Source: a virus (Duplodnaviria > Caudoviricetes). From it: a stretch of DNA of 64,000 bases. This document shows positions 3,913 to 51,165 of the stretch, piece after piece (within the stretch, counting starts at the first letter, position 1; every line of letters starts with the position of its first letter). The stretch is taken from the IMG/VR virus record IMGVR_UViG_3300033076_001341, positions 1-64,000 of that record, one strand, 5' to 3'. The position numbers and the translations under genes are program-made. The notes below the pieces were generated by a model that did no database searches, was not told the origin of the DNA, and saw only the letters and a program-made list of their open reading frames with translations.

Positions 3913-3933
3913 ACCTCGGTTGGTTTTCATATG

Positions 3934-12163: not shown

Positions 12164-12519
12164 TCCATCAGTATAAGGTCCGAGTAGACGTATACTCCTG
12201 TAATGTGCATGTGGTCGTTACTGACGACATGAATGCCTATATCCGTGAGTTGGAAAAACAGTATGGTACGGTCGAAGGAGTAGATGGCAGCGAAGGGTTC
12301 ATGTACACCCCGGATATGAAAACGTACTACGTGGTCTTTGACGATGTATTTCTCACACACAACACCATTGCGCACGAAGTATTTCACCTGACGTGTTCAA
12401 TCTGCAATGACCGGGACGTGATCGAGGAAGAACCCAAAGCATGGTTAAGTGGTTTTCTAACCGAAAACATTTACAAGTTTATTGACAAGAAGAATTTAGT
12501 TCTAAAGAAAGATGCCTGA
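12160..12519 (+). CDS. Small zincin-like (HExxH) protein
   Basis: TIAHEVFH plus downstream EEEPKAW third-ligand region; ATGA overlap with the upstream gene. Confidence 0.7.
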   Translation: MIHQYKVRVDVYSCNVHVVVTDDMNAYIRELEKQYGTVEGVDGSEGFMYTPDMKTYYVVFDDVFLTHNTIAHEVFHLTCSICNDRDVIEEEPKAWLSGFLTENIYKFIDKKNLVLKKDA

Positions 12520-32624: not shown

Positions 32625-35600
32625 ATGTCTTGCACTATAGATTCCAAGGTGCTGCGCACCGCGCTTGAAAAAGCTCTACGTACCAATCCTGAAAAATATC
32701 GCAACCTTGAAAACTCGGTTCGCGACGTTATGCGATTGTCAAACCTGACTGATGAAGTCAAGGTAAAGGTTATAGCTGCATACAGCGAACTGTACAAACA
32801 CCTATCTAGAAAGTCTACAGCTTTTGAATTAAACAACCTCGATACATTCCTGGACGCCCGCGTGGTTCCCATGATTGATGATACTTCTCTGAGCGCCTCG
32901 CGTTTCACTGAAGCATTGTCTATGATCCAGGAGCAACTCGGAGTGACTCCCGCCACCGGTACTACGCAGAACATCCGCGCTAAAGAACTGGCGGTTGCGT
33001 TATCGGAAGCTATCGAGAGTCCACTGGTTGGACGTTACGCCCGCATCAAAGCAGTAGCGGACACCGTGGTTCAAGAGCGCAGTCTGCTGGACGCCGGGAT
33101 GAACGACTCCCAGGAACTCAACAGTGTAAAATTGCTGGAGAACGCCATTGACAAATTGCAGAACAGCGGTATGGACAAAAACACTGTCCGCAACCTGATG
33201 AAAGCATTGTCTCCCGCACTGGCGCAACTGCGTACTCCAAACAGCGAAAACGGATACATTGACCTTCGCTTAATCCCGGAACTTTCCTCCAATCGTTTTG
33301 AAGCGTACCTCTCTGACGGATCTATTGTCGATCTGCTTAAAGAAGGTGAGAGCTACATGATTCTCGATGAGAACCTGCAGAGCACCGGTGAAGTCTATGA
33401 CCTTAGTGCAAACCCTGCACCTAAAGCGGTCTTCCCTGTACCCAGCTCCTGGATTGCCAACGACGGCGCTACACTCCTGATCAACGGTGATGAGATCAAC
33501 ACCGGTCTGGTAATGATTGGTGCAGACCTGGAGGCATTCAGTAACGAAGTAATGAGTTCGACCAACAATCCGGTCAACACCGTTACCGTAGTTGCTAATA
33601 ACAGCAACGCTGCCCGCAATGCTGCCCGCTTTAATATCATTCGTCAGGCAGTAGCTCAATACCCTGCACTTGCTAACCGTACCATTGAAACCCGCGAAAG
33701 TGCTGCGCAGGTACGTGCCCTGCAGAGTGGTAAACCCGTGCTGACCCGTGCTCGCCTGAGCGATGGATTTTCCCTTCAATTGGTTTCTCCTTCCGGAAAG
33801 ATGGTCACTGTCCTGAACTACAACGATTACGTCGTGGTATTCCCAGACAACACTACCCGCAGACTGGATCTTGAAAACGAAGAGGATCTGAATCTCTTTG
33901 CGCAGCTGACCAATATCCGCTACACCAAGGGAGCAGCTAAGAACACCGTGCGTCCAACGACGATGGATGACTTGTACATGTTGCGTGATGGTGCCCGCCG
34001 CTATAAAGCGTTCGAAGCAGAAGTCAACGCATTGCTTGACAAAGGAGAGACAACCATTCCAACATCTGTATTCAGCAAGTACTTCGAGTTGCAAAACCAG
34101 GTGTACTACAATGACTTTACTAATTCATACGACACCATGGAGAAAGTCTATGGAGAGCGTTTTGATCAGTTCGTCAATAAGCACAACGGCGGATTCTCCG
34201 TAGACGTTGTAAACATCAACGATAAAACCAATCCTACCAAGCGTCAGTTGCCGGCAATCTTTGCACCGGTATACACGACCCGCAATGCTCGTCGCGGTGA
34301 TGCGTGGAGACCCATCGAACTATTGGGTCCCGATGAATACGTACTGCACGAGGGTAAGATTTACAAGTGGAAAGAATACGTAGAAAAAGTATTGATGAGC
34401 ACCATGGGTGACTCGATCTCTAAACTGAGTTTGCTTTCCGGTCACCGCTACGCCAGTTTGTTTCCTGTCAGCGGAACCAAGCATGCTGTGATTCCACTCA
34501 TCCGTAACAAGCAACCCAAAGTAACCGCCCAGTACGCTGATGTACTGCTGAACCTCGGACGCTTCGTTGCAAACTTTACCTCGACCACTCCTACTAAAAC
34601 ATACACCAACAACTTCAACAATGAAGTATTTGGTTTTGAAATTGTCAGCGGTGTACGTGCCGACTTCTTTACCAACATTGGTAAGAACGGTAAGCCGTAT
34701 CTGGCGGTGCAGTTCAATGCAAAAGACACGCATGCAGATGCTGCCTTCTTTAACGAGAATGCCAGCTTGCTGAACTTTGCCGTGAGCAGTGATCCACTGG
34801 ATAAGATCATGGAAACCGTTAAGGCGTTCTATGAATCCCAGGGTCTTGATTTTGTTTACGAGTCTGCAGCAGATGCCAAGCGTATCGCTGAAGAACTCAA
34901 TGGTCTGTTCACCAATGCTGCCGGCAAAGAAGCGGTGCAGAAACTGCAGGAAGAGATTGATAACATCTATCAAAAGTTTACCAAGGACGTACACACGAAG
35001 TTTGGTAAGAAGCTGGATAGTTTGCTCAACCATCCTGAAGCAGAAACCCGTGAGATGGCGCAGCAGATGATCGGCACCAAGGAGAAGTTCATGTTCCAGC
35101 TCTTTGAACAGGTTGAAAATAAACCCGTGCTCAAAGTTCAGAACAAGGAAACCACCTACCGTGACCTGAGTAGCTACTACACGTATAAGTCCAACATGTT
35201 TAGCCGCCTGTCACTTCGTTACAACATGGTTAGTCCATTTGAGCGCAGTGAGTTCAGCGATGCACTCGATGAGATGGAGACTCTTGTTGTACCACCGATT
35301 GACTTGTTTACTACTGAGCAAGACGTTGAAAATAATTTCACCATGTTCCCCGGTGCTACTCCAGAGAGTGGCAGCAGCAGACTGGATGACTTTGATATGT
35401 TTGATCCCTTTGAAGGAGGTGCAGCTTCGCTGGGTGATGCCTTGCAGCTTGCCGCTTTTGAACAGGGTGAATTCCAACGCCAGGTTGATTACATCCGCGA
35501 GCGTCTTCCCAAAGACATTGCTATTGATGATCTGGATAAGATTGTCCGTAACCTGGACGCTGAAGGTAACGTGCTTGGATACATCAAAGACAAGGTGATT

Positions 35601-38600
35601 TACCTAAATGAGAATCTTTCTCGTCCTGGAACTGCCTATCACGAAGCATTCCACGCCGTGTTCCGGTATTTGTTATCTCCTGAAGAGCGTGCAAACCTGT
35701 TGAGTCGCGAGTACGAGAGCATGGGTATTATTTCTGAGTCAGCAATTGCTGAATTCAGAAAGCAACGCCGTGGTCTTGCACACATGAGCAACACCGAAGT
35801 GATCGAGCTGATGGCGGAAGAACGTATGGCGGACAAGTTTCAGTCCTACGCGATTAAGAAAACGAAACCACAGACATGGTATGCCAAGTTGTTTAATCTC
35901 ATTCAACGTCTGATTGAGTTTTTCACGAAACACAAAAATGAAATCGAACAGACCTTTGACAGAATCCACAGCGGGTTCTACTCCAGTGCGTCTGCCAAAG
36001 AATACAGCGGTGTAGAAGGTGCTTACCAACTGATCAAGACCGTTCCGACCATGGGTCTGCTGGATGGTAAGATCAAAGGATTTACCGAAAGCATGAACGC
36101 TGCAGACATGATGGAGCTGCGTAACATGATGGTCTATGAAATGCTGCGCACCAAGAATGCTGCTGGCATGACAGCTGATCAGCGTTACGACGAAGTTGCC
36201 AACATGCTGCGCTCTTATTACAACATTGACAATTTCATCCGTCAGCGTCCCGATGCGGAGTCTTTCATCCGCAGTAAGTATGAAACTAAGTTGCGTGACT
36301 TCCGTTACGTTTTGGGTGGACTACAGAACGGTGAGAAGTATGCGGTTCTGAACCTCACAGGTGATCCTCGTTATGACAACAAGTTTATCGATGGTACCAA
36401 CGAAGGAGTGATTGCCCAGAATGCACAAGAGAGCTACCGTCAGATGAAGCAGATGGTCCTGGAGATTGTTGAGAATCTGAACACCACCGACACCATTGAA
36501 AACGCCTTGGCAACAGGTGCGATCAACGAGACGGACAGCGGTGATGTGGTGATGCAGGCAAAAGCTGACGTGGAAGAGACGGGCGCAAAAGATCCGGATA
36601 TCTCTCTTCTGGAAACAGGAACCTCTGATGGTGATCGTGAATTCAGAAAGATATTCCAGTTCCTGGTCTATGAGCAGGAAGACTTCGGAGTGGGAATCAC
36701 CATTCGCAGACCTGTTGACGCAGATAAGTTATTTGACTCCGTAAAGAAGATTACGGTAAATACTCCCAAGGCAGAGATTCTGCCTCAGATCCGTCAGCGC
36801 ATTGAAACGCTGGAGCAGGATCTGGAGCACATCAACCGACTCCTCGGTCGGATCAGCGGCTATCCTGCTGAACGGGATAACACTTACGAACTGGCGCAGA
36901 GTTTAAAGGCGATGATGAACATGCTCACTACCACCTGTGGTATTGAGAACAACATCCCGACCCGCAACGAAGCAATGTTCAACCAGTTCCACAGTGTCTT
37001 CTATGTCGCCTCTGGAGAGATCTCCCGGGTAGACATCAAGACCAAACGGGAGTTTGATGCTGCCGGTGTAGCGATTTCCAGTGAGATGCGCGTCGTAGAC
37101 GTAGCACAAACCCAGGATAATTTTGCTGCGCTTAATAAAGTTATTGACGGATACAACAACACCTACCGTTTACTACCGGAGACCAGCGACGGAGGATACT
37201 TCCGCGCCAGCAAGAAGCAGATTCAAGCGGATCTGAAAGAGACCATGGACATTATCCTGGAACGTGGATCAAAAGAGATCAGCACGTTCTACCTGGAAAA
37301 CGGAGAGTTCTCCGATGCCATGGTAAACAAACTTGCCGATGACCTGTATGTCATCTCCAGTTCTGCCGGTCTGGGTCTTCCCCGACATTTCTTCCATTTC
37401 TCCCTGGTTGCTATGATCCAGGCGAGCGGTTATCGTATTCCTGAAGGAAGCGAAGCGCGCTCGATCCTGATGGCAAATACTGACATCTACAAGGAGAAAG
37501 GATACATGACGCCCAGCATGCTGACAGCAATGCGCTACATGTTCAGCTACTCCGACAAAGTGCCGTTGTTTGAAAACACCGCTAACAAAACCCGCAAGTC
37601 AGTCGTTGCCAGCTTCCTGCCGGCAATGATGTACGTGACCCGCTATGATCAGTCAATTGGTCAGCCGGTAGTGATGAACACCACCGGTAATAAGATCTAC
37701 CGCTTTACGCTCTACTCGCCCAACATGCAGGTGGTGCAGGATCTTCAGCAGCTGGGTCTCAACGAGTTTGTCAAGGACGTCTATGGTCAGGACTTCGTAA
37801 GTTGGTTTAATGACAACCCTTACTTACAGGAAGGTGTACTCAGCGATTTGTTACAGGAGTACCTGAAGGTCGGATACCTCAATGGACTTTCTCAGCAGAT
37901 TGACGAAGGAGATAACATTAACACCGACGTCAGCAAAATTGACAAAAAAGGATACCATCTTTCTAACCTGGCGTTGTTTGCAGACCGCAAGTCTTACAGT
38001 CGTGCGGGACAGAAGCTGACAACGTTCAAGCGGATTACGTCTCAGAACGATGCGACCGGCACCGTGTTCCATGTAACGGGTCGTTACGAGGAATACATGA
38101 CCACCGTTGGAAACGCAAAGACAGAGTTCAACGGAAAGAAAGTCAGCATGATCAGTGCGCGTCTTGCCGGCTTGATTCAGCAGGAATACAACCGTATCCA
38201 AAAAGAATACCAGGAGCGGGACGTCAACAAGACCCGCTACAATGATTACAACGGTAAGTTACTTGCCGATGGAACCGTAGATACGACCAGTGCAAAGTTG
38301 CGTGCGTATAACTTCCATCACCTGGACAGTTTCTTCTTAAATGAGATTGGTGCAACAGACTCCAGCATTGTGGATGAGAATGTAGCTGCCAGGGTGTACA
38401 TGCGCGAGCAGTTGATTGCTGCAGCTAAAGAAGGAAAGTCTTTTGCAGATACGTTGAGTAGTCCTGCACTGGCACCGCTGTTTGAACAACTGGACTTGTA
38501 CGCACAAGATGAATTTGAGTTCTTCCTGGAGAACCTGGAGAATGAAAAGATCATTGAAAAAGTTGGAGCTGATTACAGCACTGCTTTCTTTGACACTTCC

Positions 38601-41600
38601 TACAAACTTAATGGGGAGAACAAAACGGGTGCGCTGGGTAATTCACTGAAGACGCACCTGAACGATTACTTTTTCAATGACTGGGTGAACCGATTGCTTG
38701 TTAACCAACTCTTTGATGGTGACAAGGCAGTAGGTATCAAGAGCGCCGTGGATTACTACAAGCGTTTGAAGTCTCAGGCTGCTGCCGGCAAAAACGCCGA
38801 GAGCGCCAGCCGGATCATCAAGCACGGTACCAGCACCTATCGCCATGTGGTGATTACCACTCCTGGAAATAAAGAAATTCCTGTGTACTTCGATCCCAGT
38901 GACCTGACTAAACCTCAGCAGCACTCCAGCGAAGGCATGGAAAACTATAAAGCATTTGAGATCATGGATGGTCACGTCTACCAGACACTGAACCACCGCA
39001 TGAAGTTCCTCAGTGCTGAAGGCAAGCTTGATGCCCGCAGTGAAGAGATCATTCGCTCTTTGCGATACAAGCGTGCAAGCTTTGAGGAGATTGAATACCT
39101 GGAGAGTCGTGGTATCCAGCTGAACCCGCAAAAGACGGTAACAGCGCACCCGATTCACTACCTCAAGATGAGTGAGCACTACATCAACCGTCTGACCGTG
39201 AGCTACTACCGCGCCGCTGACAAGCGTGCTGCCAGGGACCGTGTCGCTGAAATGTACAAGCTGCTCGATCTGTACGAAGGTCAATTGGATTTAGGCATCG
39301 AGGTGAACGAAAACGGTGAGTCTATCGAAAGACTTTACCGCGATACAGTGACCAAGATCCACCAGGAGTTTGCACCGATCAACGGCAGACAGATGCTGCA
39401 CAGCATGCTCAACAACATGGAGTATCATCGCCTGGGACAACTGAGTGATAACAGTGCTTCCAAGCGGGGAACTATTATTCCTGCCAGCGTCACCATAGAG
39501 CAATTAGAATCAGGTGATACTTACTGGGATCTCGATAATCACGTAGCGACCATTCCGATGCGATATGCGTACAACCAGGTAGCAACTGAAATGCATCACC
39601 ATGATGTAACGGATTCTATTCAGCCAAAGTTGCTTATTGATACGGACATTGACCTGAAGGACCCCAATGTTCCGGAAGACCTTAAGAAGCTGGTGCGTAC
39701 GTACCGTACCCTGCTGAACAACATGTCAGTGAACTCCCGCAAGAAGTTCGAGCGCGTAGTTAAAAAAGGCGGAAAGATTGACACAGCAAACTTCTACAAG
39801 ATGATCCAGGAGTCCCTGCAGAAACAGGGTGCTCCCCAGCACATGCTCAAGATGTGGGACGTTGTAGACGGAGAACCGGTGCACAGTGCAAACTTGCCAG
39901 GTATTACCGAGGCGTTGAAATACTATGTATTCAGCAGCGCCAATGCAAGCTTGTTCCAACCAAAAGCACCTGGTTACAAGTTCTACCACGGTTCCTCTTT
40001 CGGATACAAGATCATCGTTGATGAAAACGATGTGCCGGTACCGGACGAAGAGATCCGCAAGAACCCTGAGAAATATAATAATTACGAAACCCGGTATCCA
40101 TCGTTCCGCAAGACTATCAATGCCGAAGGTGTTGAAGAGTATTACGTAGAGGTATTGATTCCAAGACCAACCAGCACCAACCCCAAGAAGTTGCGTGTGC
40201 TGGAGAAGTCCCTGGAGGAGTTCTTTGGTACCCGTATCCCTACGGAGGATAAACGCTCCATGGTGCGGGTGAAAGTGGCTGGTTATATTGACGCTACCTA
40301 TATCAATACGATTGTCGTTCCAGAACAGATTCACTATTTGTCCGGATCAGATAAAGATATCGATGCGTTGTACGTACGTATGCTCGGCACCTATGACAAC
40401 GTCCTGGGTGAATTGAACATCTACGGGGATTACTCCGAGTACGAGGATCGCTACGGCATGGATGCAAAGACTGCACGCTTTGTGGAGTACCTGCATTACA
40501 TGATGAACGATCCATTCTTCGGACCGCTGGTGAGCAAGGAACTCCGTCGTATGAAAGAAGACGCCGGATACAAAGTAGAGAACCTCAAAGAAAGCGCTGC
40601 CATGTTTGGTCCTAAAGTGCAGGAGTTCTTTACCCGCTCTATGGACGACATCATGAGCGCTATGCAGAGTCGTTTCAGGGACCTCAAAGAATCTAAACAG
40701 ATCCAGACAACCGGCAAGAAGTTTACTTCTTTTGAAGACCTGCGTGACATCGTGGATGCACAAGGCGACGAGAGCAGTGTAGAGCTTCAGCGTCAGCTTC
40801 GTCTCCTGGAAAAGATGGCGGCAGTTGTCAACGTATTGCAAGGTACGGACATGCCGGTGACTGCAGAGGAGCTGATGAAGTATGAGAAAGCAAACGGCTC
40901 TCCTGTGATTCCGATTATCCAGAACGAGATTACCTCGGTGATGAACAAGATCCTGGGTCACAATTATGTCTTTGATAATCTGTACAGCAAGGAATTCTCC
41001 AACGCAGATATTTATAAAAACGCCGTAGACAAACTGGGTCGCGATGAAAAGGACACCATTGGTCAGAGCAATTTTGCAACGATCACGTCGGTATCGAACG
41101 TGCGTGACTCCAACAAGAGCGCCAAGCGTGGTATCGAGATCTTTGCAGCGTTCAACAAAGGATTGAGTATTGCCGTAAAGCACGGTCTGAAGCTGCAGGA
41201 ACCAATCTGGAACATCAACGGTAAAACGTACAAGAGCTTCAGTATCGAGGATGGTGATGACCCAAGCAGACAGCGTGCACATGCATTGATCGGAAACTCC
41301 CTGGGTATGAGCGCCGATGCGGCGAAGAACCCTTATCCTGCCGTACTGAGTCTGAATCAGTACAACATGGCGGTGACTGCTACGATGCTGAGTCTGGGTA
41401 TTGATCCTTATCTGAGCATCTACATCAACCTGATGCCTTCAGTCAAAAATGCCGTGAGTGTGTACGAAGCAGAAGCAGAAGGATCTGTGCGACGCAGTTA
41501 TAAAAACGGTACAAGCTTATCGACGCACCTCTTCAATACGCTGACCTATAAGTTAAATGAACTCTCTGTTGGCGATGCTGCACAGCAAGCGTTTGCCAAG

Positions 41601-44408
41601 GACTTTACCCTGAGCGACTACACGTTCAATTTTGATGTGGAGAATGTTGATCCAAACATCGTGAACAGCGATAACCCAACGGTTGATTCCATGGGTGTGG
41701 AAGTGGTGAACACGAAGGGTCTGGAGTTGACGGCAGAGATGAAAGACGTGGTGATGCTGGCAATGTTTATCGAACAGCAAAAGCAGGCAGAAGCGATTCG
41801 CTACGAACTGGGTCCGTTGACAGATGCACAGAAATCACTGTCACCGGATTTCAACACGATTGATCGTTTGAAGAACGTATACAGCAAAGACCGCGACGAA
41901 AGTGTGTTTGAAGGATACAAAAACATCTTTAGTGAGAGTCCTGTATACAACGACCTGGGTAAGAGTATTGAACTCTTTGATGAGATGACCTCGGAAGTGT
42001 TCCTGGAAAGAACACCTCTGGTAAAAGAATTGACCAAACAAATCAATGCGGCAATCTATGCAGCAAACCCGCAGCAGATCTCTTCGCATATAAAAAGCTA
42101 CCTGGCGCTGAACGTACTGAAAAATACGATCACCACCGCCATGCAAGATCCGGAGCTGGAGAAAAACTCTCCGGTAGTACATGCCCGCTACAGCAGCTTC
42201 CTGAGCATGCTCAACGCGGACTACTGGTATAACAACAACATGCCCAACACAATCAACCGTTTGAAGCGTGAGTTCCGTGGCAATGCATTTCTGGATGCTA
42301 TTGATGTGTTTAATGGAAAGAACGGACTAAAGCTTGTGCGCAGTGTAAGCAAAGCAAAGGTGAGTCCTGAACGGGAGATCATGATCATGAACGGACTGGA
42401 TCAGTTGTTGACCAACTCCGATGCAACGGTTCGTGAAGCAGCTTACCAGATCTTTTATTATTCTATCGTCAAAGACGGAATGTCGGCAGCTCCTTACAGC
42501 TTGCGCCGATTCCTGAACCCGGATAACTTCCGCGAGGTAAGTAACCAGCTTAAGAAAGTAGAGAAAGCATTTGACACACTTAACCAGGCGTACCAAGAAA
42601 ATGCTGGTATGGATTTCCGCAAAGCATTCGAGTCAGAATTCAAATCCTTGTTGGGTGAGAATTCTAGTCTGGACTTTGTGATTGAAGACGTGATGGAGAA
42701 GATCATCAGTATTTATGATCCGACGGCTGATGAGAGTAAAGTTAAGGTGCTGAACTATACCAATGAGCGTGGTAAGTTTACCGGCTATGGTGTCAAAGCA
42801 ATGCAAGAAGCAATTGAAAGCATGCGTCCTTCCATGGGTGCAGAGATCTTTGCAGAAGCGGAAGCAAATGCACACGAGAGCCGCAACCTCAAGCGTAAGT
42901 TCAAACTAAACAAGAAGCGTGCAGAAGATACAGGTAAACCTGTTTCCAACAACGACCTCTTCCTTCCGGATAGCAACGACGAAGTAGTCCTGAACATGGC
43001 AAACGCTTCCAAGTTAAACAACGAAATGTTTGACAAGATTGCGATGCACAACAGCATCTATCCTCGTCGCGTCAACGCCGAAACCCTGACCAAAGAGTAC
43101 AGCTTCCCGCTGTATGTAACCAATACGTACGGAGACCTGATGGTCCTAAACGAAGTGGACGGTCAGAAGCTGGGTAGCAAACTCTTTGATAAGATTGAAG
43201 AGCAGATGAGTAACGATGCATCGCAGATAAATGGTAATCCGTTTGTGGGAACCAAAGCGGTGTACAAGATCGTGAAACGCCAGGGTGATGCAAACATCAA
43301 CCCCATTGCATTCTCTACCAAGGAGGCAGTGAAGTTAAACGACTATGCAACCGGTGCGTTAACACCTTCTATCACCACCATTGATGAGACAGGCGGAACC
43401 TACAAAGGCATTACGGTACTGAGTGCAAAAGATATGGTGCGCCAGGGCACTGGTGAACCCGGAGCAGCAAAGTTCCGTCGTGCTGACAACACTATTGTGA
43501 TTGACCGCGATACGCTTTATGACAAGTACTACGAGAAAGCGTGGACGAGTCCCTTGAAGCAGCGTGATGGAAGTTTTGCTACGGCATTCCCGGAGAACAC
43601 GTTCAACAACTACAACGACTGGGAAACTTTCGTTCTGGAGCACGAGCGTCAGCACATGGTGCTTGGTCCAAAGCAATTGAATGAAGAGTACGGTGCGTAT
43701 GAGGATCGGGTGAATCGTGCAGCACTTGCTGCATTATTTCCCGGAATGGATCTGACATTTCTGGATGCAGCAACACAAGCTCCTGCAGACCAGAGTGTAA
43801 ATGAACCCATCCTGGTTTCTACTCCAGAGCAACCCCTTGAGATCTATGTCGATGGATCGCACATCAAAGGAACCGGTATGCTGGGATACGGCGCTGCTGT
43901 AAAACACAACGGCAGAACGCTCAGCATGAGCGGAACAGAGGAGAGCAAAGCGTTCAAGTCGTTCCAGGCTAAGTTCCCGTCTGCGAAGTTCTCTAATCCA
44001 ACAATGGAGATGCTTGGACTGGTGATGACGCTCAACACGTTTAAGGACACTGCCGAGCACCTGGTGATCAAGCAGGATTACAAGGGTGTTGTAAACTACG
44101 GTGCACTTTGGAATCGCTCAGAAGGATCGTTGCAGCGTGAACCTAAACCATGGAACGCGAAGGAAACCTACATCCAATACCTGGTCGACAAAGCGGTGGA
44201 GATGATCGAGCGCATCGAGAGCAACGGTGGTACCGTTAAACTTCAATGGGTGAAGGGTCACAGCAAAGACGTGATGAACGACGCTGCAGACGCTGCTGCC
44301 AAAGACAGAAGTGTATTTAACCAGTTCGGATTGTTATTCGAACAGAATTCAGTAGAGAAGGTCATTCAGTCAAAGACTGAGGAGTCCAAAGAATGTAACA
44401 ACAACTAA
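32625..44408 (+). CDS. Virion-packaged DNA-dependent RNA polymerase polyprotein (crAss/phi14:2 gp66-type) with two HExxH domains and C-terminal RNase H, 3927 aa
   Basis: FFGTRIPTEDKRSM followed by catalytic loop GSDKDIDAL (40350-40364; compare DFDID in phi14:2 gp66); HEAFH at 35640-35654; HERQH at 43641-43655; RNase HI motifs at 43836-44310. Confidence 0.85.
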   Translation: MSCTIDSKVLRTALEKALRTNPEKYRNLENSVRDVMRLSNLTDEVKVKVIAAYSELYKHLSRKSTAFELNNLDTFLDARVVPMIDDTSLSASRFTEALSMIQEQLGVTPATGTTQNIRAKELAVALSEAIESPLVGRYARIKAVADTVVQERSLLDAGMNDSQELNSVKLLENAIDKLQNSGMDKNTVRNLMKALSPALAQLRTPNSENGYIDLRLIPELSSNRFEAYLSDGSIVDLLKEGESYMILDENLQSTGEVYDLSANPAPKAVFPVPSSWIANDGATLLINGDEINTGLVMIGADLEAFSNEVMSSTNNPVNTVTVVANNSNAARNAARFNIIRQAVAQYPALANRTIETRESAAQVRALQSGKPVLTRARLSDGFSLQLVSPSGKMVTVLNYNDYVVVFPDNTTRRLDLENEEDLNLFAQLTNIRYTKGAAKNTVRPTTMDDLYMLRDGARRYKAFEAEVNALLDKGETTIPTSVFSKYFELQNQVYYNDFTNSYDTMEKVYGERFDQFVNKHNGGFSVDVVNINDKTNPTKRQLPAIFAPVYTTRNARRGDAWRPIELLGPDEYVLHEGKIYKWKEYVEKVLMSTMGDSISKLSLLSGHRYASLFPVSGTKHAVIPLIRNKQPKVTAQYADVLLNLGRFVANFTSTTPTKTYTNNFNNEVFGFEIVSGVRADFFTNIGKNGKPYLAVQFNAKDTHADAAFFNENASLLNFAVSSDPLDKIMETVKAFYESQGLDFVYESAADAKRIAEELNGLFTNAAGKEAVQKLQEEIDNIYQKFTKDVHTKFGKKLDSLLNHPEAETREMAQQMIGTKEKFMFQLFEQVENKPVLKVQNKETTYRDLSSYYTYKSNMFSRLSLRYNMVSPFERSEFSDALDEMETLVVPPIDLFTTEQDVENNFTMFPGATPESGSSRLDDFDMFDPFEGGAASLGDALQLAAFEQGEFQRQVDYIRERLPKDIAIDDLDKIVRNLDAEGNVLGYIKDKVIYLNENLSRPGTAYHEAFHAVFRYLLSPEERANLLSREYESMGIISESAIAEFRKQRRGLAHMSNTEVIELMAEERMADKFQSYAIKKTKPQTWYAKLFNLIQRLIEFFTKHKNEIEQTFDRIHSGFYSSASAKEYSGVEGAYQLIKTVPTMGLLDGKIKGFTESMNAADMMELRNMMVYEMLRTKNAAGMTADQRYDEVANMLRSYYNIDNFIRQRPDAESFIRSKYETKLRDFRYVLGGLQNGEKYAVLNLTGDPRYDNKFIDGTNEGVIAQNAQESYRQMKQMVLEIVENLNTTDTIENALATGAINETDSGDVVMQAKADVEETGAKDPDISLLETGTSDGDREFRKIFQFLVYEQEDFGVGITIRRPVDADKLFDSVKKITVNTPKAEILPQIRQRIETLEQDLEHINRLLGRISGYPAERDNTYELAQSLKAMMNMLTTTCGIENNIPTRNEAMFNQFHSVFYVASGEISRVDIKTKREFDAAGVAISSEMRVVDVAQTQDNFAALNKVIDGYNNTYRLLPETSDGGYFRASKKQIQADLKETMDIILERGSKEISTFYLENGEFSDAMVNKLADDLYVISSSAGLGLPRHFFHFSLVAMIQASGYRIPEGSEARSILMANTDIYKEKGYMTPSMLTAMRYMFSYSDKVPLFENTANKTRKSVVASFLPAMMYVTRYDQSIGQPVVMNTTGNKIYRFTLYSPNMQVVQDLQQLGLNEFVKDVYGQDFVSWFNDNPYLQEGVLSDLLQEYLKVGYLNGLSQQIDEGDNINTDVSKIDKKGYHLSNLALFADRKSYSRAGQKLTTFKRITSQNDATGTVFHVTGRYEEYMTTVGNAKTEFNGKKVSMISARLAGLIQQEYNRIQKEYQERDVNKTRYNDYNGKLLADGTVDTTSAKLRAYNFHHLDSFFLNEIGATDSSIVDENVAARVYMREQLIAAAKEGKSFADTLSSPALAPLFEQLDLYAQDEFEFFLENLENEKIIEKVGADYSTAFFDTSYKLNGENKTGALGNSLKTHLNDYFFNDWVNRLLVNQLFDGDKAVGIKSAVDYYKRLKSQAAAGKNAESASRIIKHGTSTYRHVVITTPGNKEIPVYFDPSDLTKPQQHSSEGMENYKAFEIMDGHVYQTLNHRMKFLSAEGKLDARSEEIIRSLRYKRASFEEIEYLESRGIQLNPQKTVTAHPIHYLKMSEHYINRLTVSYYRAADKRAARDRVAEMYKLLDLYEGQLDLGIEVNENGESIERLYRDTVTKIHQEFAPINGRQMLHSMLNNMEYHRLGQLSDNSASKRGTIIPASVTIEQLESGDTYWDLDNHVATIPMRYAYNQVATEMHHHDVTDSIQPKLLIDTDIDLKDPNVPEDLKKLVRTYRTLLNNMSVNSRKKFERVVKKGGKIDTANFYKMIQESLQKQGAPQHMLKMWDVVDGEPVHSANLPGITEALKYYVFSSANASLFQPKAPGYKFYHGSSFGYKIIVDENDVPVPDEEIRKNPEKYNNYETRYPSFRKTINAEGVEEYYVEVLIPRPTSTNPKKLRVLEKSLEEFFGTRIPTEDKRSMVRVKVAGYIDATYINTIVVPEQIHYLSGSDKDIDALYVRMLGTYDNVLGELNIYGDYSEYEDRYGMDAKTARFVEYLHYMMNDPFFGPLVSKELRRMKEDAGYKVENLKESAAMFGPKVQEFFTRSMDDIMSAMQSRFRDLKESKQIQTTGKKFTSFEDLRDIVDAQGDESSVELQRQLRLLEKMAAVVNVLQGTDMPVTAEELMKYEKANGSPVIPIIQNEITSVMNKILGHNYVFDNLYSKEFSNADIYKNAVDKLGRDEKDTIGQSNFATITSVSNVRDSNKSAKRGIEIFAAFNKGLSIAVKHGLKLQEPIWNINGKTYKSFSIEDGDDPSRQRAHALIGNSLGMSADAAKNPYPAVLSLNQYNMAVTATMLSLGIDPYLSIYINLMPSVKNAVSVYEAEAEGSVRRSYKNGTSLSTHLFNTLTYKLNELSVGDAAQQAFAKDFTLSDYTFNFDVENVDPNIVNSDNPTVDSMGVEVVNTKGLELTAEMKDVVMLAMFIEQQKQAEAIRYELGPLTDAQKSLSPDFNTIDRLKNVYSKDRDESVFEGYKNIFSESPVYNDLGKSIELFDEMTSEVFLERTPLVKELTKQINAAIYAANPQQISSHIKSYLALNVLKNTITTAMQDPELEKNSPVVHARYSSFLSMLNADYWYNNNMPNTINRLKREFRGNAFLDAIDVFNGKNGLKLVRSVSKAKVSPEREIMIMNGLDQLLTNSDATVREAAYQIFYYSIVKDGMSAAPYSLRRFLNPDNFREVSNQLKKVEKAFDTLNQAYQENAGMDFRKAFESEFKSLLGENSSLDFVIEDVMEKIISIYDPTADESKVKVLNYTNERGKFTGYGVKAMQEAIESMRPSMGAEIFAEAEANAHESRNLKRKFKLNKKRAEDTGKPVSNNDLFLPDSNDEVVLNMANASKLNNEMFDKIAMHNSIYPRRVNAETLTKEYSFPLYVTNTYGDLMVLNEVDGQKLGSKLFDKIEEQMSNDASQINGNPFVGTKAVYKIVKRQGDANINPIAFSTKEAVKLNDYATGALTPSITTIDETGGTYKGITVLSAKDMVRQGTGEPGAAKFRRADNTIVIDRDTLYDKYYEKAWTSPLKQRDGSFATAFPENTFNNYNDWETFVLEHERQHMVLGPKQLNEEYGAYEDRVNRAALAALFPGMDLTFLDAATQAPADQSVNEPILVSTPEQPLEIYVDGSHIKGTGMLGYGAAVKHNGRTLSMSGTEESKAFKSFQAKFPSAKFSNPTMEMLGLVMTLNTFKDTAEHLVIKQDYKGVVNYGALWNRSEGSLQREPKPWNAKETYIQYLVDKAVEMIERIESNGGTVKLQWVKGHSKDVMNDAADAAAKDRSVFNQFGLLFEQNSVEKVIQSKTEESKECNNN

Positions 44409-44409
44409 G

Positions 44410-47400
44410 ATGGCTTGCAGTATTATACGTAACAAATCAGGAGAAATTAAAACAGTCCTTGCATCAAACGGTAAGGACTCTATCCTGTACAAAGAGATTC
44501 TTCAACTTCCCACTATTGCGGGAGACAAGGAAACAGCACTGAGGATGTGGGCGATTGCTTACACCCCGGAGTTCAAGACCCGTCATGGAGATTGGGAACA
44601 AGCTAAAAGTACCATCAACCTGGACGCCAACGGTGAACCGGTGGTTGGATACGTGGGTGCTTTTGCTAACCTGGCAGCTGTCAACTACAGCCTGAATGCA
44701 GAGACTGTGACCTATGACAAGGAAAAGCAGCGACTGGAGCAGCAGTTCAAGCTGCGCTTTGGGGCGTCTAACACGGACAGCCAGCGCAAAGCAATGGACA
44801 TGGTTCGCCAGATCAACGCCGTCGCACTGACCGGTGAGGCGTCGCTGTACACGTTTACGGATACCCAAGGCAAACCGATGTACATGATTCACTTCACCGA
44901 GGTGAGTTATGACCAGATGAAAGACATCAACGGGTTTGACACCAGTGATTCGTCATATCGTGCTGAAAAAGAGCAGGTGCAGCAAGTGCTGGACCGGTTG
45001 ATGAAGTCTGTTCCTGGAGTAAAGGCACAATGGATACACCCCACGGAATTGCAGGCAGCCGATCACCCCAATAAGAATCTACGTTCTATCAACGCTTATG
45101 TAAAGGGAGACACCGTGTACCTGGTGGAAGGACGGGTGACTCCGGACATTGCCATGGAAGAAGTGTTGCACTTTGTAGTGGAGATGCTCAAAGTAGATCG
45201 TCCTGCACTGGCAATGCGTTTGTTCAACCAGGCAAAAGCAGCAGTGCCTGCCCTGTGGAACGAGATTGAAACAACCTACACCGATGAGCGTGGGTTTACT
45301 GCAGCCAACCGCAAGAGTGAGCTGATCACCCGGATGTTGCAGAAAGAATACCGCAACGAGATTGAGACCAACCCTGCCCGTGAGTTTGCAGAGATGCGCA
45401 CGGTACTGGGAAACATATTTAAGTGGTTGACAGATTTACTTAACAAAGTATTTGTCGACAAAGCATACGGCGACACAGCTGTGGTGGATTTGCGCGAGCT
45501 GCCACTAAACACTACGTTCAACGAGCTGGCAGTGATTCTGAACACCCGCAACGTCGTGATTGAAGCATTCAGCATTGATGATGTACTCTACAACCTGGAA
45601 GAAGCAGAGAATGAAGATCTGGAAAAAGAACTTCCTGTCCCCGGTGAAGAAGAGAAGCGTGGAGACGCTGTCTGGAAAAAGAAAATCCTGGAGCGACAAC
45701 TGGAGCGTGTGGACAAGCAGCTGGACTACTTAGCACTGGCAGAAAAGAACTACCGTCCCAACCCCGCACAGAAACTTACGCTGGGTAAACTGCGCACGCA
45801 GCTGGAGGAGTACAAGCAGATCCTGATCAATACCCCCAATAAGACACGTCGCGTGTCCCGGGTGATTGGGCAGACGGATGTAACCGGCGCAGAAAACTAC
45901 GCAAACTTTGGAACTTTCGTGCACAACATGCTGGAGGAACTGCAGGTACGGTCTCTGGAGACCAAGCAGGCACCTATCGTATTGTTCGAGCGGGAGGATT
46001 TTGATATTCGTTACCGGGAAACCATGGATAATCCCAAGACTGCGTTTGAATTCAAGGGGATGACGCAGGAGGATGTCTATAAGATGACCAAGGAGATTAT
46101 CGGTTTCCTGGGTGACGTGTACGCTCAGGGACAGATCCTGATCCCGGAGATGACCATGATCAGCAAGGACCCGCTTCGTGGTGCCATTGTGGGTCGTATT
46201 GACTTTATGGCGGTAGACAAGAAAGGTCGTGTCACCGTGTACGATTTAAAGACTGCTCGGATTAATGCCGGGGACCTGCCGCACAACAAACTGAACAAGG
46301 AGTTCAAGAAGGAGACGTTTCTTCCAGGAGTAACTCCTGAATTCGGGATGCTCAAGATGCGCAGTAAGTTCATGGATTACGATGCACAGCTCAGCGTGTA
46401 CGAGCGCATGATGAAGCAAGCAGGTATTGAAGTCAACGAACGCATTATCCTGAGTTTGATTTACGCAAACAAGAACAAGAGCGTTGTTGCCAGCGGAAAG
46501 GAATTTGAATTCGCCAGCGCACGCGTGCACCGCTACAGTGAGTTTGACTATGCGTACCGCACCGAGTATGAGTATGACCAGGAAGGCAACGTAACAGGCG
46601 AATTCAGAGTGCTTCGCCGTGAATTCATGCGTATCCGGGAGGCAGCTAAAGATGCTGTTCCCATTGAAGGAGAAACGTTCGAGGAATACAACCAGGACCA
46701 GATGCGCGAAGGCGTAAACTACTTTGGGGTGTTTAACGATCAGACCCTCGATGAGTTTGTGGACATGATGGTAGAAGGTATTGACGATCAGCTGGCGCAG
46801 CTTCGCAACGAACTCAAGAAGAGTGATGCGTACTTCAGCGATCCGAAAGTAAAAGAATATTACCAGGACCGCAGCAAGCAACTCTACCAGATCAAAGAGG
46901 AGATGCTTAAAGCAAACGACGAAGAGAAACTAGCACTTGCTAAAGGGATCAAGTTGTCGGCTGCTGTAGCGAGTCTGAATTTGAGTGCTAAACAGATCGA
47001 AGAAGAAGCAGCGCGTCTGGAAGGATTGAATCTGTCGTTGGAAGAACGCCTCAAGCGTCTTAGTCAGATCAAAAACGAAGCAGAACACCTCGATGAAGTG
47101 CTCGGTGTAATTCAGGAAGTGGGTGAGCGCACCAAGCTTGCCAGTACCGATCCGTTGATGCAGGTACTGAGCAGTTCAAGATCTGCGCTCAAGAGTGCTA
47201 TTAGCAAGTACCGCAAACAGGGTGAGGAGATTATGATCGAGGTAATCAAAGAATCGGTCCCTGAAGAACTCATCAGTGAAATCTATAAAGACCGGGGTGA
47301 ATACCTGCAAGGGGTTGTCCGTGGACTGGAGCGAGAGATTGCTGAACTGGAGAACCCAGAATGGCGTCCGCCGGTATGGCAGCTGCACAAGCGTTTTGCA

Positions 47401-50400
47401 TACAAACCAGAAGACATCAACCAGATCCGCCAGGAGAAACTTGCAGAGAAAAAGAAGGAACTCGCTACAGCAATTGCCGATCAAAGCAAAAAGACGCTGA
47501 GCGAAAAGGATATTCAGGACTATGTCCATGCACTGACCAACAACAAGGACGCAGCGCTTTACATTGGTAGCAACACCAGCACTACCCGTATTGGTTTTGG
47601 TTTGGGTGACTTGATCAGTAACTCGACCAACCCGGAGTTGATTGTGTTTGCTGTGTTTAACAAACTCAGAAACCTGACCAACGATGCACAGAACAATGCA
47701 ATGAACAACTTCTATGAGATGGATTTTGACGGTAAAGTCAAGTCGTTCGTCTCCAGGAAGGGAGGAGAATCTGCTGCCAACGCTGTACTGCGTGAACGTA
47801 GAACGGTGACGTACTTCAACGAAGACGGTACTACTTACACCAAGGATCACTATTCGTTTAAGAATCCGGTGACCCAGGAGTACTTTGACTACATCGACCA
47901 GCAACGTCGACTCATTAGTGACAAGCGTAAGTTACTGCGTGATCTGCGCAAGCAGCGTAATGCTGATCCTTCCAACACGGAAATCAAAGACCAGGTGGAA
48001 GCGCTTGATGCAGAACTAAACAATGACGTCGCTACTTACAACCAATGGTTGAAGGAAAACACCGAGCGTGAATTCGTGGACGATTACTATGAGTTGAGTG
48101 TGAGTCTGCCGGCAAACGTGCAGAACGAACTCAACGAGATCGACGATGAGATCAGCCGTGTTCGCTCCACCAAGGTCGGTGCAGAGGAATTGCTCACTGA
48201 GCTGGAACTCGAAAAGATCGATGAGTTGGAACTGAAGAAGAACAAACTCTTCCAGGATGCAATTAAGGCAGATCCGGAGTATCAGGAAAAGATGCAGCGC
48301 TACCGCGAGCTGAAGACCTACGATGAGAACTGGGGACTGTATAACAAGTTCCGTGCAGAGAAGATGGCTGCCTACGGTGCAAACTCTGAGGAGTTCAAGC
48401 GTTGGGAGAAACTTAACAAATTCAGACGTCCTTCTGAGAAATACTACAAAGAGATCGAGCGTATCTATAGCCGGATCAACAAGATCATGGGTGAGCAGGA
48501 CGAGGAACTTAACATGCTCATGGGAGAGCGTGCAAAGATCCGACGCAAGTACAAGCTGAACGGAACGTTCTTCTCCGGTAACATGGACGCCGCTGACATC
48601 GAGGCGTACGATAAACTCGAAGCAAAGATTGAAGCGATCCGTGAGAAAGCTGCCATGGAACAGGAAGAGTTTGGTGAAGAAGGTGGATTGTCCCTGGAGG
48701 TACGCAAGCAACTGGCACCTCTTTATGATCGCCTGAGCAAGCTGCGCAGTAAGAAGAACACGGAGAGCTATACCAATGAGCTGAACAAGCGTGTGAACGA
48801 ACTGGAGGTTGCTGGTAACATCCTGCGTTCTTATGAGTCCATGATGGATCAGGACGGTACCTCTTCGTTCAAGAATGAAAAAGACCTGGAAGAGAAATAC
48901 CATGCTGCCGAGCAGAACTACAATACGATTGAAGATCAGTTTGAGCAGTGGTACAACAAGAACCACGCAAACACCTACACGGTGGGTACATTCCGTAACG
49001 GAGAAGCGCTTGATCCAAAACCCAAGACGTTCCACTACGAGTTTGTTCCCCGGGAAGATCTGGCTGATGAGTACTTCGAAGAAGTATTGCACCGCCGCTA
49101 TCGTTTGTCCCGTCCGACAGAAGCTGCCAAGAACGACAAGTTCCAGCTGACTCCGGAAGGATACCCTGTACCCAAAGGACTGCAGTTAAAAGACAACCGC
49201 TGGGAGATCAGTGGATCGAACCCATACATCAGCAATGACTTTATTGAGCTGACACAGAATCAGCAGGATTACGATTTCTACAACTGGTTGGTAATGGATA
49301 ACTACATTGCCCGCCAGGACGGTACTGCCGGCAGAAAACTTGGATTCCTCTTTCCAGGAGTGCAGATGAATAAGATCGACAACGTCAAGCAGTTTGGCAT
49401 GATGCAGGGAATTCGTCGGGAAATAGAAGAGACCACAGCAGAAGTTACGTTGGGTAAAAACAAAAGTGACATTGATCTAGCGTCTAACGAGTACAATACG
49501 ACCGGGCGGATGCGTGTGCGTTTCAAGTACAACTTCCCGATGGAAGCGGACATTACCACGACCAATGGTATCACTGCCGTGGGTATGTGGATGGTGGAGC
49601 GTGAGATCAACCACGAGATGGGTAAGGCGGATGTTGCCTTCAGTGCAATCATTGATGCAATGGAAGCCATGCGTGACCACGTGCATGACACCAACAAACT
49701 CAACCAGCTTAACAAAGCAATTGAATTAGTCACCTTCGAGCGTGACAAGTTTATCTACGGTAAACGCATGAAAGGTGATGACGGAGATGTCAACAAGATG
49801 AAGGCATTGCGGATGTTCATGAAGGCAGTGAGTTTTGGTCGATTGGGTTTTGACTTTGCAGCGCAGACCGGTAACATGCTTTCCGGTAACGTGCAGACGT
49901 TCCTCAATGCGCAGGACGGTGATTACACGTTGTCGAACCTGGCTACAGCTAAGAAGCAGACCTATAACATCCTGATGAACATGGTGCGTGACTATGGTAA
50001 AGTGAGCGACGTGTCGTTCGAAACCAAGTTTGTGCGTTTCATGAACCCTTCACAAAAGGAACTTTCTGAACTCATTGACCTGAACACCAAGACACAGCTG
50101 GATCGTTTCCTGACAAAGAGTATGGACCTGGGTAATCTGAGTTACATGCTCCAGGATAAAGGGGAAATGGAAATTGCGATTACCACCATGACCGCCGTAC
50201 TGGATCACCACAAGTTCAAAGTGTTTGACCTGGACAGCAGCGGCAACAAACAGTACGATGCCAACGGAGAAGTGCTGTACAAGATGAAAGATGGTGAAGT
50301 GGAACTGGCTACTGGTTGGACAGCGTTTACTGAAGACGCCAGTGGGCGGATCGTTTCTCGTCCGGATGTAGACATCACTGAGCAACAGGTCAAGATGCTG

Positions 50401-51165
50401 CGCAACAAAGTCTACTCACAGATCCTTAAGTCCCAAGGTAACTATGCAGACTGGACCTCTACGCACATCAGCTCTACGCAGTTCGGGGTTATGATGGAGT
50501 ACTTTAAGAAGTACTTCGTGCACATGGCGCTTCGTCGCTTTGGTAAACACCAGGAAGACTTTGAAGGCATGAAGTATGCCGCTGGCTGGTACCGCATTCT
50601 CTTTGACATGTTCCGTCGCTACGGATTTAAGGAAGGTGTTAAAGCAATGATTCCAGGAGCAAACAAAAGTGAGGTCAACGAATACTACCGCACCGGTTCT
50701 ATGCAGGCAGCTCGTGAGATGCTTACCGGTATGGTAATGATGATGCTCTACGGATATCTCCGAGGACTTGCCTACAGCGATGACGATGATGATAAAGAAC
50801 TCAACTGGATGCAGATGCAGATCATGCGTACGTTCGCCAAGGTGATTTCAGAATCCCGTTCGATGATCCCTGTTCCATACATTGGTAACGTGGATACATA
50901 CATTGACTCGTTCTCTAACTTTACGTCGGTGTTCCGGGAGGCAAAGACTGCCTGGAAGCTTATTGAGAACAGCATGTCGCTGCTTGGATATGAGATCTTT
51001 GGTGATGCCTTCGAGGAAGCAGCCTTTTACCAGAAAGCATACGGTATGTATGAAGCAGGTGATGCAAAGGCACTGAAAAACTTCCATGACCTGGTTGGTT
51101 ACGACAACATCGTTGGAATCTTTGATCCGCAGTACAAGTTGAAAGAACAGTACCGGAACAAATAA
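44410..51165 (+). CDS. Large polyvalent cargo protein with PD-(D/E)xK nuclease and degenerate zincin domain, 2251 aa
   Basis: GTFVHNMLE...IPEM...GRIDFM...VYDLKT...YDAQLSVY (RecB/Cas4-like nuclease motifs); EEVLH; long coiled-coil region; hydrophobic C-terminal segment. Confidence 0.75.
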   Translation: MACSIIRNKSGEIKTVLASNGKDSILYKEILQLPTIAGDKETALRMWAIAYTPEFKTRHGDWEQAKSTINLDANGEPVVGYVGAFANLAAVNYSLNAETVTYDKEKQRLEQQFKLRFGASNTDSQRKAMDMVRQINAVALTGEASLYTFTDTQGKPMYMIHFTEVSYDQMKDINGFDTSDSSYRAEKEQVQQVLDRLMKSVPGVKAQWIHPTELQAADHPNKNLRSINAYVKGDTVYLVEGRVTPDIAMEEVLHFVVEMLKVDRPALAMRLFNQAKAAVPALWNEIETTYTDERGFTAANRKSELITRMLQKEYRNEIETNPAREFAEMRTVLGNIFKWLTDLLNKVFVDKAYGDTAVVDLRELPLNTTFNELAVILNTRNVVIEAFSIDDVLYNLEEAENEDLEKELPVPGEEEKRGDAVWKKKILERQLERVDKQLDYLALAEKNYRPNPAQKLTLGKLRTQLEEYKQILINTPNKTRRVSRVIGQTDVTGAENYANFGTFVHNMLEELQVRSLETKQAPIVLFEREDFDIRYRETMDNPKTAFEFKGMTQEDVYKMTKEIIGFLGDVYAQGQILIPEMTMISKDPLRGAIVGRIDFMAVDKKGRVTVYDLKTARINAGDLPHNKLNKEFKKETFLPGVTPEFGMLKMRSKFMDYDAQLSVYERMMKQAGIEVNERIILSLIYANKNKSVVASGKEFEFASARVHRYSEFDYAYRTEYEYDQEGNVTGEFRVLRREFMRIREAAKDAVPIEGETFEEYNQDQMREGVNYFGVFNDQTLDEFVDMMVEGIDDQLAQLRNELKKSDAYFSDPKVKEYYQDRSKQLYQIKEEMLKANDEEKLALAKGIKLSAAVASLNLSAKQIEEEAARLEGLNLSLEERLKRLSQIKNEAEHLDEVLGVIQEVGERTKLASTDPLMQVLSSSRSALKSAISKYRKQGEEIMIEVIKESVPEELISEIYKDRGEYLQGVVRGLEREIAELENPEWRPPVWQLHKRFAYKPEDINQIRQEKLAEKKKELATAIADQSKKTLSEKDIQDYVHALTNNKDAALYIGSNTSTTRIGFGLGDLISNSTNPELIVFAVFNKLRNLTNDAQNNAMNNFYEMDFDGKVKSFVSRKGGESAANAVLRERRTVTYFNEDGTTYTKDHYSFKNPVTQEYFDYIDQQRRLISDKRKLLRDLRKQRNADPSNTEIKDQVEALDAELNNDVATYNQWLKENTEREFVDDYYELSVSLPANVQNELNEIDDEISRVRSTKVGAEELLTELELEKIDELELKKNKLFQDAIKADPEYQEKMQRYRELKTYDENWGLYNKFRAEKMAAYGANSEEFKRWEKLNKFRRPSEKYYKEIERIYSRINKIMGEQDEELNMLMGERAKIRRKYKLNGTFFSGNMDAADIEAYDKLEAKIEAIREKAAMEQEEFGEEGGLSLEVRKQLAPLYDRLSKLRSKKNTESYTNELNKRVNELEVAGNILRSYESMMDQDGTSSFKNEKDLEEKYHAAEQNYNTIEDQFEQWYNKNHANTYTVGTFRNGEALDPKPKTFHYEFVPREDLADEYFEEVLHRRYRLSRPTEAAKNDKFQLTPEGYPVPKGLQLKDNRWEISGSNPYISNDFIELTQNQQDYDFYNWLVMDNYIARQDGTAGRKLGFLFPGVQMNKIDNVKQFGMMQGIRREIEETTAEVTLGKNKSDIDLASNEYNTTGRMRVRFKYNFPMEADITTTNGITAVGMWMVEREINHEMGKADVAFSAIIDAMEAMRDHVHDTNKLNQLNKAIELVTFERDKFIYGKRMKGDDGDVNKMKALRMFMKAVSFGRLGFDFAAQTGNMLSGNVQTFLNAQDGDYTLSNLATAKKQTYNILMNMVRDYGKVSDVSFETKFVRFMNPSQKELSELIDLNTKTQLDRFLTKSMDLGNLSYMLQDKGEMEIAITTMTAVLDHHKFKVFDLDSSGNKQYDANGEVLYKMKDGEVELATGWTAFTEDASGRIVSRPDVDITEQQVKMLRNKVYSQILKSQGNYADWTSTHISSTQFGVMMEYFKKYFVHMALRRFGKHQEDFEGMKYAAGWYRILFDMFRRYGFKEGVKAMIPGANKSEVNEYYRTGSMQAAREMLTGMVMMMLYGYLRGLAYSDDDDDKELNWMQMQIMRTFAKVISESRSMIPVPYIGNVDTYIDSFSNFTSVFREAKTAWKLIENSMSLLGYEIFGDAFEEAAFYQKAYGMYEAGDAKALKNFHDLVGYDNIVGIFDPQYKLKEQYRNK

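Follow-up and report, generated by a model that had tools for sequence, protein, structure and literature searches.

The DNA considered here is a stretch of 64,000 nucleotides (hereafter the window; positions 1 to 64,000 of the IMG/VR record IMGVR_UViG_3300033076_001341) belonging to an uncultured crAss-like phage, whose 128-kb genome (CheckV 100%) is a metagenome assembly from which terminal repeats are absent. An uninterrupted open reading frame (ORF) at 32625-44408 encodes a giant protein of 3927 amino acids (aa), P0001; the other P, L and G numbers used below denote proteins, loci and genomes of relatives. The subject of this work is the RNase H domain lying near the C-terminus of P0001, the RNA-polymerase-like protein that carries it, and what such a domain might do there. 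The relevant features of the carrier are the following.

32625..44408, plus strand: giant ORF P0001, 3927 aa, comprising a zincin N-terminal region, a crAss-type RNA polymerase core and a variable tail
35505..36014, plus strand: zincin-like N-terminal region, aa 961-1130, with HEAFH at aa 1006-1010 (nucleotides 35640-35654)
36222..43337, plus strand: RNA-polymerase-like conserved core, about aa 1200-3571, with collinear BLASTP segments shared with phi14:2 gp66
40350..40364, plus strand: predicted catalytic metal-binding motif DKDID, aa 2576-2580, aligned to DFDID 1361-1365 of gp66
43338..44405, plus strand: hypervariable C-terminal tail, aa 3572-3927, which varies in length and domains among relatives
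43371..43742, plus strand: small zincin-like HExxH module, aa 3583-3706, with HERQH at nucleotides 43641-43655
43836..44309, plus strand: type-1 RNase H domain, aa 3738-3895, with catalytic D3743, E3795, D3818, H3879 and D3889
44310..44405, plus strand: conserved C-terminal peptide ...KECNNN, with Cys3924 at nucleotides 44394-44396

An intact type-1 RNase H domain

Residues 3738-3895 of P0001 are a type-1 RNase H domain with an intact catalytic set. The Pfam family RNase_H (PF00075) matches this interval with 43.0 bits (E = 6.6e-11, cut-off 25.8), a six-frame search of the genome with the same profile gives 43.3 bits, and PHROG 531 ('RNase H') matches at 5.4e-16; neither Pfam nor PHROGs yields any match in the remaining ~3700 residues of the protein. 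In a phmmer comparison with the PDB sequences the domain aligns end to end with Escherichia coli RNase HI (E = 4.6e-5), the motifs YVDGS, NPTMEM, KQDY, KGHS and NDAAD falling on D10, E48, D70, H124 and D134 of the bacterial enzyme; D3743 thus corresponds to D10, E3795 to E48, D3818 to D70, H3879 to H124 and D3889 to D134. Across 22 aligned sequences, both fused and stand-alone relatives, the four acidic catalytic residues are invariant, as is the SNPT.E segment at the catalytic Glu, and H3879 is kept in at least 90%; all five catalytic residues are identical in eight of eight fused proteins.

The fold is equally clear. The AlphaFold2 model of residues 3718-3927 has a mean predicted local distance difference test score (pLDDT) of 91.3, and its best match in VIA-align is an archaeal RNase HI (2ehg; Z = 14.6, root-mean-square deviation 2.7 Å over 133 residues); the top 50 matches are type-1 RNases H only, human H1 and the RNase H domain of HIV reverse transcriptase among them. 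In Foldseek the top match is E. coli RNase HI (E = 2.8e-9). A preliminary description of this DNA had placed a full RNase HI catalytic set, in normal order, at 43836-44310. The alignment to E. coli RNase HI bears out the former, and the coordinates prove nearly exact, the PF00075 match covering nucleotides 43836-44309; the profile search of the last ~200 residues that it had proposed scores above the curated cut-off of PF00075, and the RNase H fold on which its account depended is present in the AlphaFold2 model.

A second Pfam family, IPI_T4, matches at residues 3737-3779 (window 43833-43961) with 26.8 bits against a cut-off of 25, and PDB entry 2jub matches as well (E = 3.9e-4). IPI_T4 is internal protein I of phage T4, an injected nuclease inhibitor that enters with the phage DNA, as P0001 would. 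The match is probably a product of chance, and was treated as such, because it coincides with the first strands of the well-modelled RNase H fold.

A carrier homologous to the crAss-type virion RNA polymerase

With residues 2200-3000 of P0001 as the query, tblastn against GenBank phages retrieves 65 records, all of them crAss-like and many annotated as the catalytic subunit of RNA polymerase, including Carjivirus communis gp44 and phi14:2 g066; the best E value is 9e-13, and that of phi14:2 is 2e-5. The BLASTP match to phi14:2 gp66 (E = 2e-10), in which SGSDKDIDALYV is aligned with TGSDFDIDKMYV, therefore sets the DKDID motif on the DFDID of gp66 at the residues listed above, and weaker collinear segments link gp66 residues 860-1640 to P0001 aa 2012-2928. 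Across 18 aligned family sequences D2576, D2578 and D2580 do not vary, and each aspartate of the gp66 motif is needed for RNA synthesis (10.1101/2020.03.07.982082). Going by sequence homology, the carrier holds as a homologue of the crAss-type virion RNA polymerase; the earlier claim that the RNase HI stands in frame with a virion RNA polymerase is borne out by the relationship to gp66 and by the single ORF.

The gp66 protein is a virion protein translocated into the host, and in vitro its transcription of single-stranded or denatured DNA is far more efficient than that of double-stranded DNA (10.1101/2020.03.07.982082). Given this homology, and the position of P0001 among giant cargo-type genes, P0001 would likewise be packaged and ejected with the DNA. 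As to the N-terminal region, H1006, E1007 and H1010 are invariant in the alignment of 18 family members, and HEAFH is present in all relatives inspected. The preprint on gp66 also reports that in some phages adjacent proteins form fused polyproteins, and that a zincin domain is present in gp65 (10.1101/2020.03.07.982082).

Recurrence of the fusion

The architecture is not peculiar to one record. Eight of the 77 giant homologues found end in this RNase H, their sources being separate assemblies (JGI, ENA and Logan); P0003 (3950 aa) is identically encoded in two different ENA assemblies, and P0005 is found in a third. Within IMG/VR the domain occurs in seven loci, in six of them inside giant ORFs. 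In the window, GC content is flat over the fusion junction. The fusion is not an assembly chimera, which the preliminary description had named among the outcomes that would undo it; its recurrence in independent assemblies contradicts this.

A wider search points in the same direction. The tail (368 aa) queried against 1.84 billion cluster representatives gives 406 matches; this RNase H subfamily is present in 80 of the best 150 of these 406, in 43 cases within proteins of at least 1500 aa, and at least 27 of the 43 giant representatives carry the polymerase core or a GSDFD[IV]D-type motif. The latter count was made with a family profile followed by a pattern search, since the profile missed many divergent giants; for this reason 27 clusters is a lower bound, and one resting partly on a short motif. 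Neither blastn nor tblastn with the RNase H region finds any match among GenBank phages, and no deposited or cultured phage carries a close relative; an experimental model is therefore not at hand.

In some giants (P0104, P0105, P0107 and P0113) the RNase H lies near residue 1500-1950. It precedes the polymerase core in P0107, where residues 1391-1956 are tail-like and the catalytic region spans 3875-3930, so that this protein resembles an upstream cargo protein with an RNase H tail of its own fused onto the polymerase. From such a layout, the RNase H cassette may sit on other cargo proteins too.

A hypervariable tail with exchangeable cassettes

The similarity of P0001 to its relatives ends at residues 3300-3585, beyond which lengths run from 36 to ~1500 aa and the content differs. 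In P0001 the order is the HExxH module (aa 3583-3706), a short linker, the RNase H domain and a 32-aa terminal peptide (...KECNNN). Among the six closest proteins, which were aligned, P0004 and P0006 (70% and 59% identical, respectively, over aa 2200-3000) are without both tail modules and finish with a terminal peptide nearly letter-identical to that of P0001; in P0002 and P0005 further sequence is inserted after the HExxH module, ahead of the RNase H. Elsewhere among the relatives this slot is occupied by NADAR, an AlkB-like 2OG-Fe(II) oxygenase, cpYpsA (SLOG), DUF7831 or an AAA_33/zeta-toxin-like kinase, or is empty, and combinations occur, one tail in P0018 having RNase H plus NADAR and L027 having RNase H plus an AlkB-like domain.

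Judged from these tails, the RNase H is one exchangeable cassette among several in the C-terminal tail of the polymerase, and no fixed part of it. The survey of the C-termini of crAss-like polymerases that the preliminary description had suggested shows that the fusion does recur, and that the tails in which it recurs hold swappable modules. Two further observations concern the tails: one distant homologue is annotated PF18760, an ART-PolyVal domain, and extra modules of ~200 aa (L003 and L004, 10529-11143) and ~900 aa (L005, 10619-13315) lie between the RNase H and the terminal Cys peptide.

The small HExxH module shows an invariant W, F, HExxH and Y-E-x3-N in 19 sequences. It has no Pfam family, and against the PDB sequences no match falls below E = 0.36; its confident model (pLDDT 86.9) has structural matches that are weak and all zincin-like (YbeY, Z = 6.4-6.7; PprI, 5.6; minigluzincins, 5.0), which faintly suggests a zincin-like module that may act as peptidase or nuclease. 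Modules of this kind (~120 aa) are widespread: giant phage proteins carry them in their tails, and they occur in many predicted proteins of lesser length, which likewise end in Cys.

The terminal peptide is conserved. C3924, four residues from the end, is an invariant column in an 18-sequence alignment, and 75 of 77 homologues have a Cys within their last eight residues, whichever module precedes it; 44 of 77 have one within the first five. P0001 itself has only three cysteines in 3927 aa, namely C3, C1438 and C3924. Such terminal cysteines in the giant cargo-type proteins may serve to connect the proteins that are ejected or to set their order. The coordinates of these cysteines in the window are 32631-32633 for C3 of P0001, 32594-32596 for Cys1627 of the ORF upstream and 44416-44418 for Cys3 of the ORF downstream; in phi14:2, gp66 ends in ...QECK and gp67 in ...NTIC.

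Distribution and conservation of the RNase H

This complete genome has no PF00075 domain besides the fused one, and the same holds for G001. Among 28 long related IMG/VR records, 25 are without RNase HI, the fusion being present in two and a free gene of 232 aa in one. The polymerase therefore works without the cassette, and the domain is accessory. That a free RNase H replaces the fusion in the relatives lacking it was considered and rejected, one only of the 26 long records in question having such a gene. The same subfamily is also found as stand-alone phage genes of 160-200 aa; L008, for instance, has a free 179-aa gene of this subfamily, 51% identical, among small genes.

Accessory as it is, the domain is well conserved. 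In comparison with distant lineages the RNase H is 56-63% identical, the catalytic region of the polymerase 33-38% and the core 24-28%; these figures suggest either that the RNase H has been exchanged between lineages or that it is more constrained than the rest of the protein. As the best-conserved part of these proteins, it is in either case maintained as a working enzyme, under selection.

A Toprim_2 primase-like gene is present in five of five complete genomes tested, with or without RNase H, and PF08275 has no match in the same five. The idea that polymerase and RNase H together substitute for a primase was rejected on these grounds: with Toprim_2 in all five genomes, the cassette is no stand-in for a missing primase.

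Neighbouring genes

P0001 is flanked by two further giant ORFs.

27716..32605, plus strand: upstream giant ORF, 1629 aa, in the position of phi14:2 gp67, with a single Cys third from the end
44410..51165, plus strand: downstream giant ORF, 2251 aa, weakly gp65-like, with a single Cys at residue 3

The upstream ORF has no family match in profile searches and, going only by its position and terminal Cys, may be an orthologue of gp67. The downstream ORF matches phi14:2 gp65 in BLASTP (E = 3e-4), and in relatives, too, this neighbour lies downstream of the polymerase gene; PHROGs has no match for either giant. A PD-(D/E)XK nuclease domain (PF12705) scores 24.4 bits (cut-off 22) at residues 497-617 of the downstream ORF (window 45898-46260), the same weak match recurring in its orthologues; it would be a second nuclease among the presumed ejected proteins.

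Farther upstream of the cargo block lie an SbcD-like DNA repair exonuclease (window 8498-9742; PHROG 704, 2.5e-45) and a virion structural protein of 1808 aa (window 12512-17938; PHROG 37948). The ORF at 60032-61729 matches head-decoration and tail-fiber families, and tblastn with the ORF at 279-1364 finds no match among GenBank phages.

A proposed role: hybrid removal on the incoming genome

As a tentative reading, which I favour while granting it somewhat less than an even chance, the RNase H travels into the cell with the polymerase and clears RNA:DNA hybrids or R-loops from the phage's own incoming genome. The preliminary description had put forward R-loop clearance behind the polymerase as one of two conceivable roles, the other being the attack on defence-related hybrids taken up further below. 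Along this line, a type-1 RNase H predicted to be catalytically competent would ride in the tail of the virion RNA polymerase polyprotein; the giant protein would be packed in the capsid like its homologue gp66 and enter the cell together with the DNA, where the polymerase core would transcribe the early genes. The RNase H, either tethered or proteolytically released, would then cut the RNA strand of the hybrids and R-loops left by a polymerase acting without factors, and the template would thereby stay usable for more transcription and for replication. The module would be an accessory of use in some hosts or conditions, outside the basic mechanism of the polymerase.

This reading is favoured because of the template preference of gp66, the tethering of the nuclease to a polymerase, its AlkB-like and NADAR companions, and the behaviour of another phage RNase H. 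A polymerase favouring single-stranded templates would, for that reason, be prone to leave hybrids. AlkB-like and NADAR families act on lesions of exposed single-stranded DNA, and as companions in the tails they fit a template-care toolkit carried by the polymerase. In phage Goslar, which has its own polymerases, transcription depends in part on the RNase H Rhc, and the pattern of this support suggests that R-loops are being resolved (10.64898/2026.10.01.755736).

Several points weigh on the other side. RNase HI is missing from the 25 of 28 long related genomes mentioned above, 17 of which are at least 90% complete, and the closest relatives, P0004 and P0006, are without the cassette. Cutting hybrids formed by newly made early transcripts would mean a loss of messenger RNA; the two zincin-like modules could cut the tail off before packaging; and NADAR, as a cassette neighbour in other tails, suits a role in counter-defence equally well.

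Alternative readings

Counter-defence is the foremost alternative, a possible one that I nonetheless consider rather unlikely. Here, the injected RNase H would destroy immunity-related RNA:DNA hybrids before any phage gene is expressed, candidate targets being the templates and products of defence reverse transcriptases, retron multicopy single-stranded DNA (msDNA), and the guide-target hybrids of RNA-guided Argonautes and CRISPR effectors. The distribution of the cassette is patchy, other modules can replace it and it comes and goes rapidly among close relatives, as is typical of counter-defence genes. The slot it occupies also carries NADAR and conflict-type modules such as the cpYpsA SLOG, to which the PF18760 annotation of one distant homologue may be added. 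A stand-alone phage NADAR, T4 AdfN, has been shown experimentally to be an anti-DarTG1 enzyme (PMC11257639), and giant injected multidomain 'polyvalent proteins' are a described strategy, yet the paper describing them does not list RNase H (PMC5512222). Moreover, hybrids bound in effector complexes are for the most part shielded, and RNase HI is already present in host cells. I know of no defence system that is beaten by injected RNase HI. A broader version, in which the whole tail serves as a plug-in bay for pre-made counter-defence enzymes and RNase H is the one injected against immunity based on reverse transcriptases or guide RNAs, is unlikely, and a little more so; if true, such a bay would be a counter-defence principle not yet described, acting in the first seconds of infection.

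It is less probable again that the domain serves replication in the producing cell, removing RNA primers or processing replication intermediates after possible release by a zincin-like protease, and does not act from the virion, its place at the end of the polymerase gene being incidental. That the fused domain is the sole PF00075 domain of this genome and of G001, that it belongs to the same subfamily as free phage genes such as that of L008, and that two zincin-like modules might cut the chain would all suit such a role, and in some jumbo phages RNase H1 does serve primer removal (PMC7824862). Most relatives, however, have no RNase HI, fused or free, and the five complete genomes display no complementary pattern with the Toprim primase-like gene. 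The fusion partner, furthermore, is a virion-type gene within a block of giant cargo genes, and the link between RNase H and polymerase tail, with at least 27 clusters showing it, recurs too frequently to be an accident.

Finally, an assembly chimera or an inactive leftover domain is practically excluded, for although the record lacks terminal repeats and was assembled from a metagenome, the same architecture is present in separate JGI, ENA and Logan assemblies, GC content does not break at the junction, the catalytic residues are kept, and conservation is stronger in the domain than in the polymerase core.

Significance

Few known viruses are as abundant as the crAss-like phages, and no enzyme acts earlier in their infection than the polymerase that they inject. 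Should this polymerase bear exchangeable enzymes for nucleic-acid care or counter-defence, the phage would meet the first minutes of infection with tools packed beforehand, and the differences in size among the giant proteins, so far unexplained, would largely be accounted for. With regard to hybrid removal, the RNase H cassette is a natural means of testing whether R-loops trouble a virion polymerase that works without factors, D3743N being a defined catalytic mutant for the purpose. In addition, the cassette boundaries, set by the point where the conserved core ends and by the conserved terminal Cys peptide, provide a simple mining rule for further delivered enzymes.

Comparison with known systems

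The closest characterised protein is phi14:2 gp66 (2180 aa; 10.1101/2020.03.07.982082), which P0001 resembles in its homologous core, its DxDxD motif, its giant neighbours and its Cys near the C-terminus. Identity is ~26% over the best segment, and gp66 has neither RNase H nor tail modules nor the N-terminal zincin region; P0001, for its part, has ~1150 aa ahead of the core and 356 aa of cassettes behind it. With E. coli rnhA (PF00075) and PHROG 531 the RNase H shares the fold (Z = 13-14.6), the five catalytic residues and the SNPTME-type substrate-contact segment. It is ~22% identical to the E. coli enzyme, has a 12-residue insert after strand 3 and no cysteine, and its helix C/handle region is rebuilt around a conserved W..GS.QR..KPW.AKE.YI; unlike bacterial and stand-alone RNases H, it is fused to a virion-type protein of 3700 aa.

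A polymerase and a C-terminal type-1 RNase H in one chain are also found in retroviral reverse transcriptases, and the RNase H domains of the HIV enzyme match the P0001 model at Z = 13.2-13.7. The likeness stops there, for reverse transcriptase is an RNA-dependent DNA polymerase that needs its RNase H, whereas the carrier considered here would make RNA from DNA and most of its relatives lack the domain. Rhc of Goslar (RNase H-clamp, Chimalliviridae) is likewise an RNase H of a phage with its own RNA polymerases, and its depletion lowers transcription; in contrast to P0001, it is a separate protein with a clamp-like domain, a subunit of the DNA polymerase, not joined to an RNA polymerase and not reported as virion cargo (10.64898/2026.10.01.755736). 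T4 AdfN and other phage NADAR anti-DarT enzymes are related to domains sharing the tail slot in relatives of P0001; AdfN, however, is a free protein expressed after infection, and its relevance is to the slot and not to the RNase H itself (PMC11257639).

The polyvalent proteins of Iyer et al. 2017, found in phages and conjugative elements, are likewise giant and multidomain, with variable effector modules and zincin-type peptidase domains, and their injection is known (PMC5512222). The P0001 family, too, consists of giant phage proteins whose domain set varies among relatives, but here the scaffold is the RNA polymerase itself. RNase H, NADAR, AlkB and crAss are all unmentioned in the text of that paper (PMC5512222), as are RNase H and NADAR in a 2021 crAss survey, and the searchable literature holds no description of an RNase H fused to a crAss-type polymerase, in agreement with what had been supposed at the outset about the novelty of this fusion. 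The fusion, which is genuine and widespread, seems not to have been described before. Already known are the polymerase family, RNase HI and the concept of multidomain polyvalent proteins that are injected; what is new is the cassette context.

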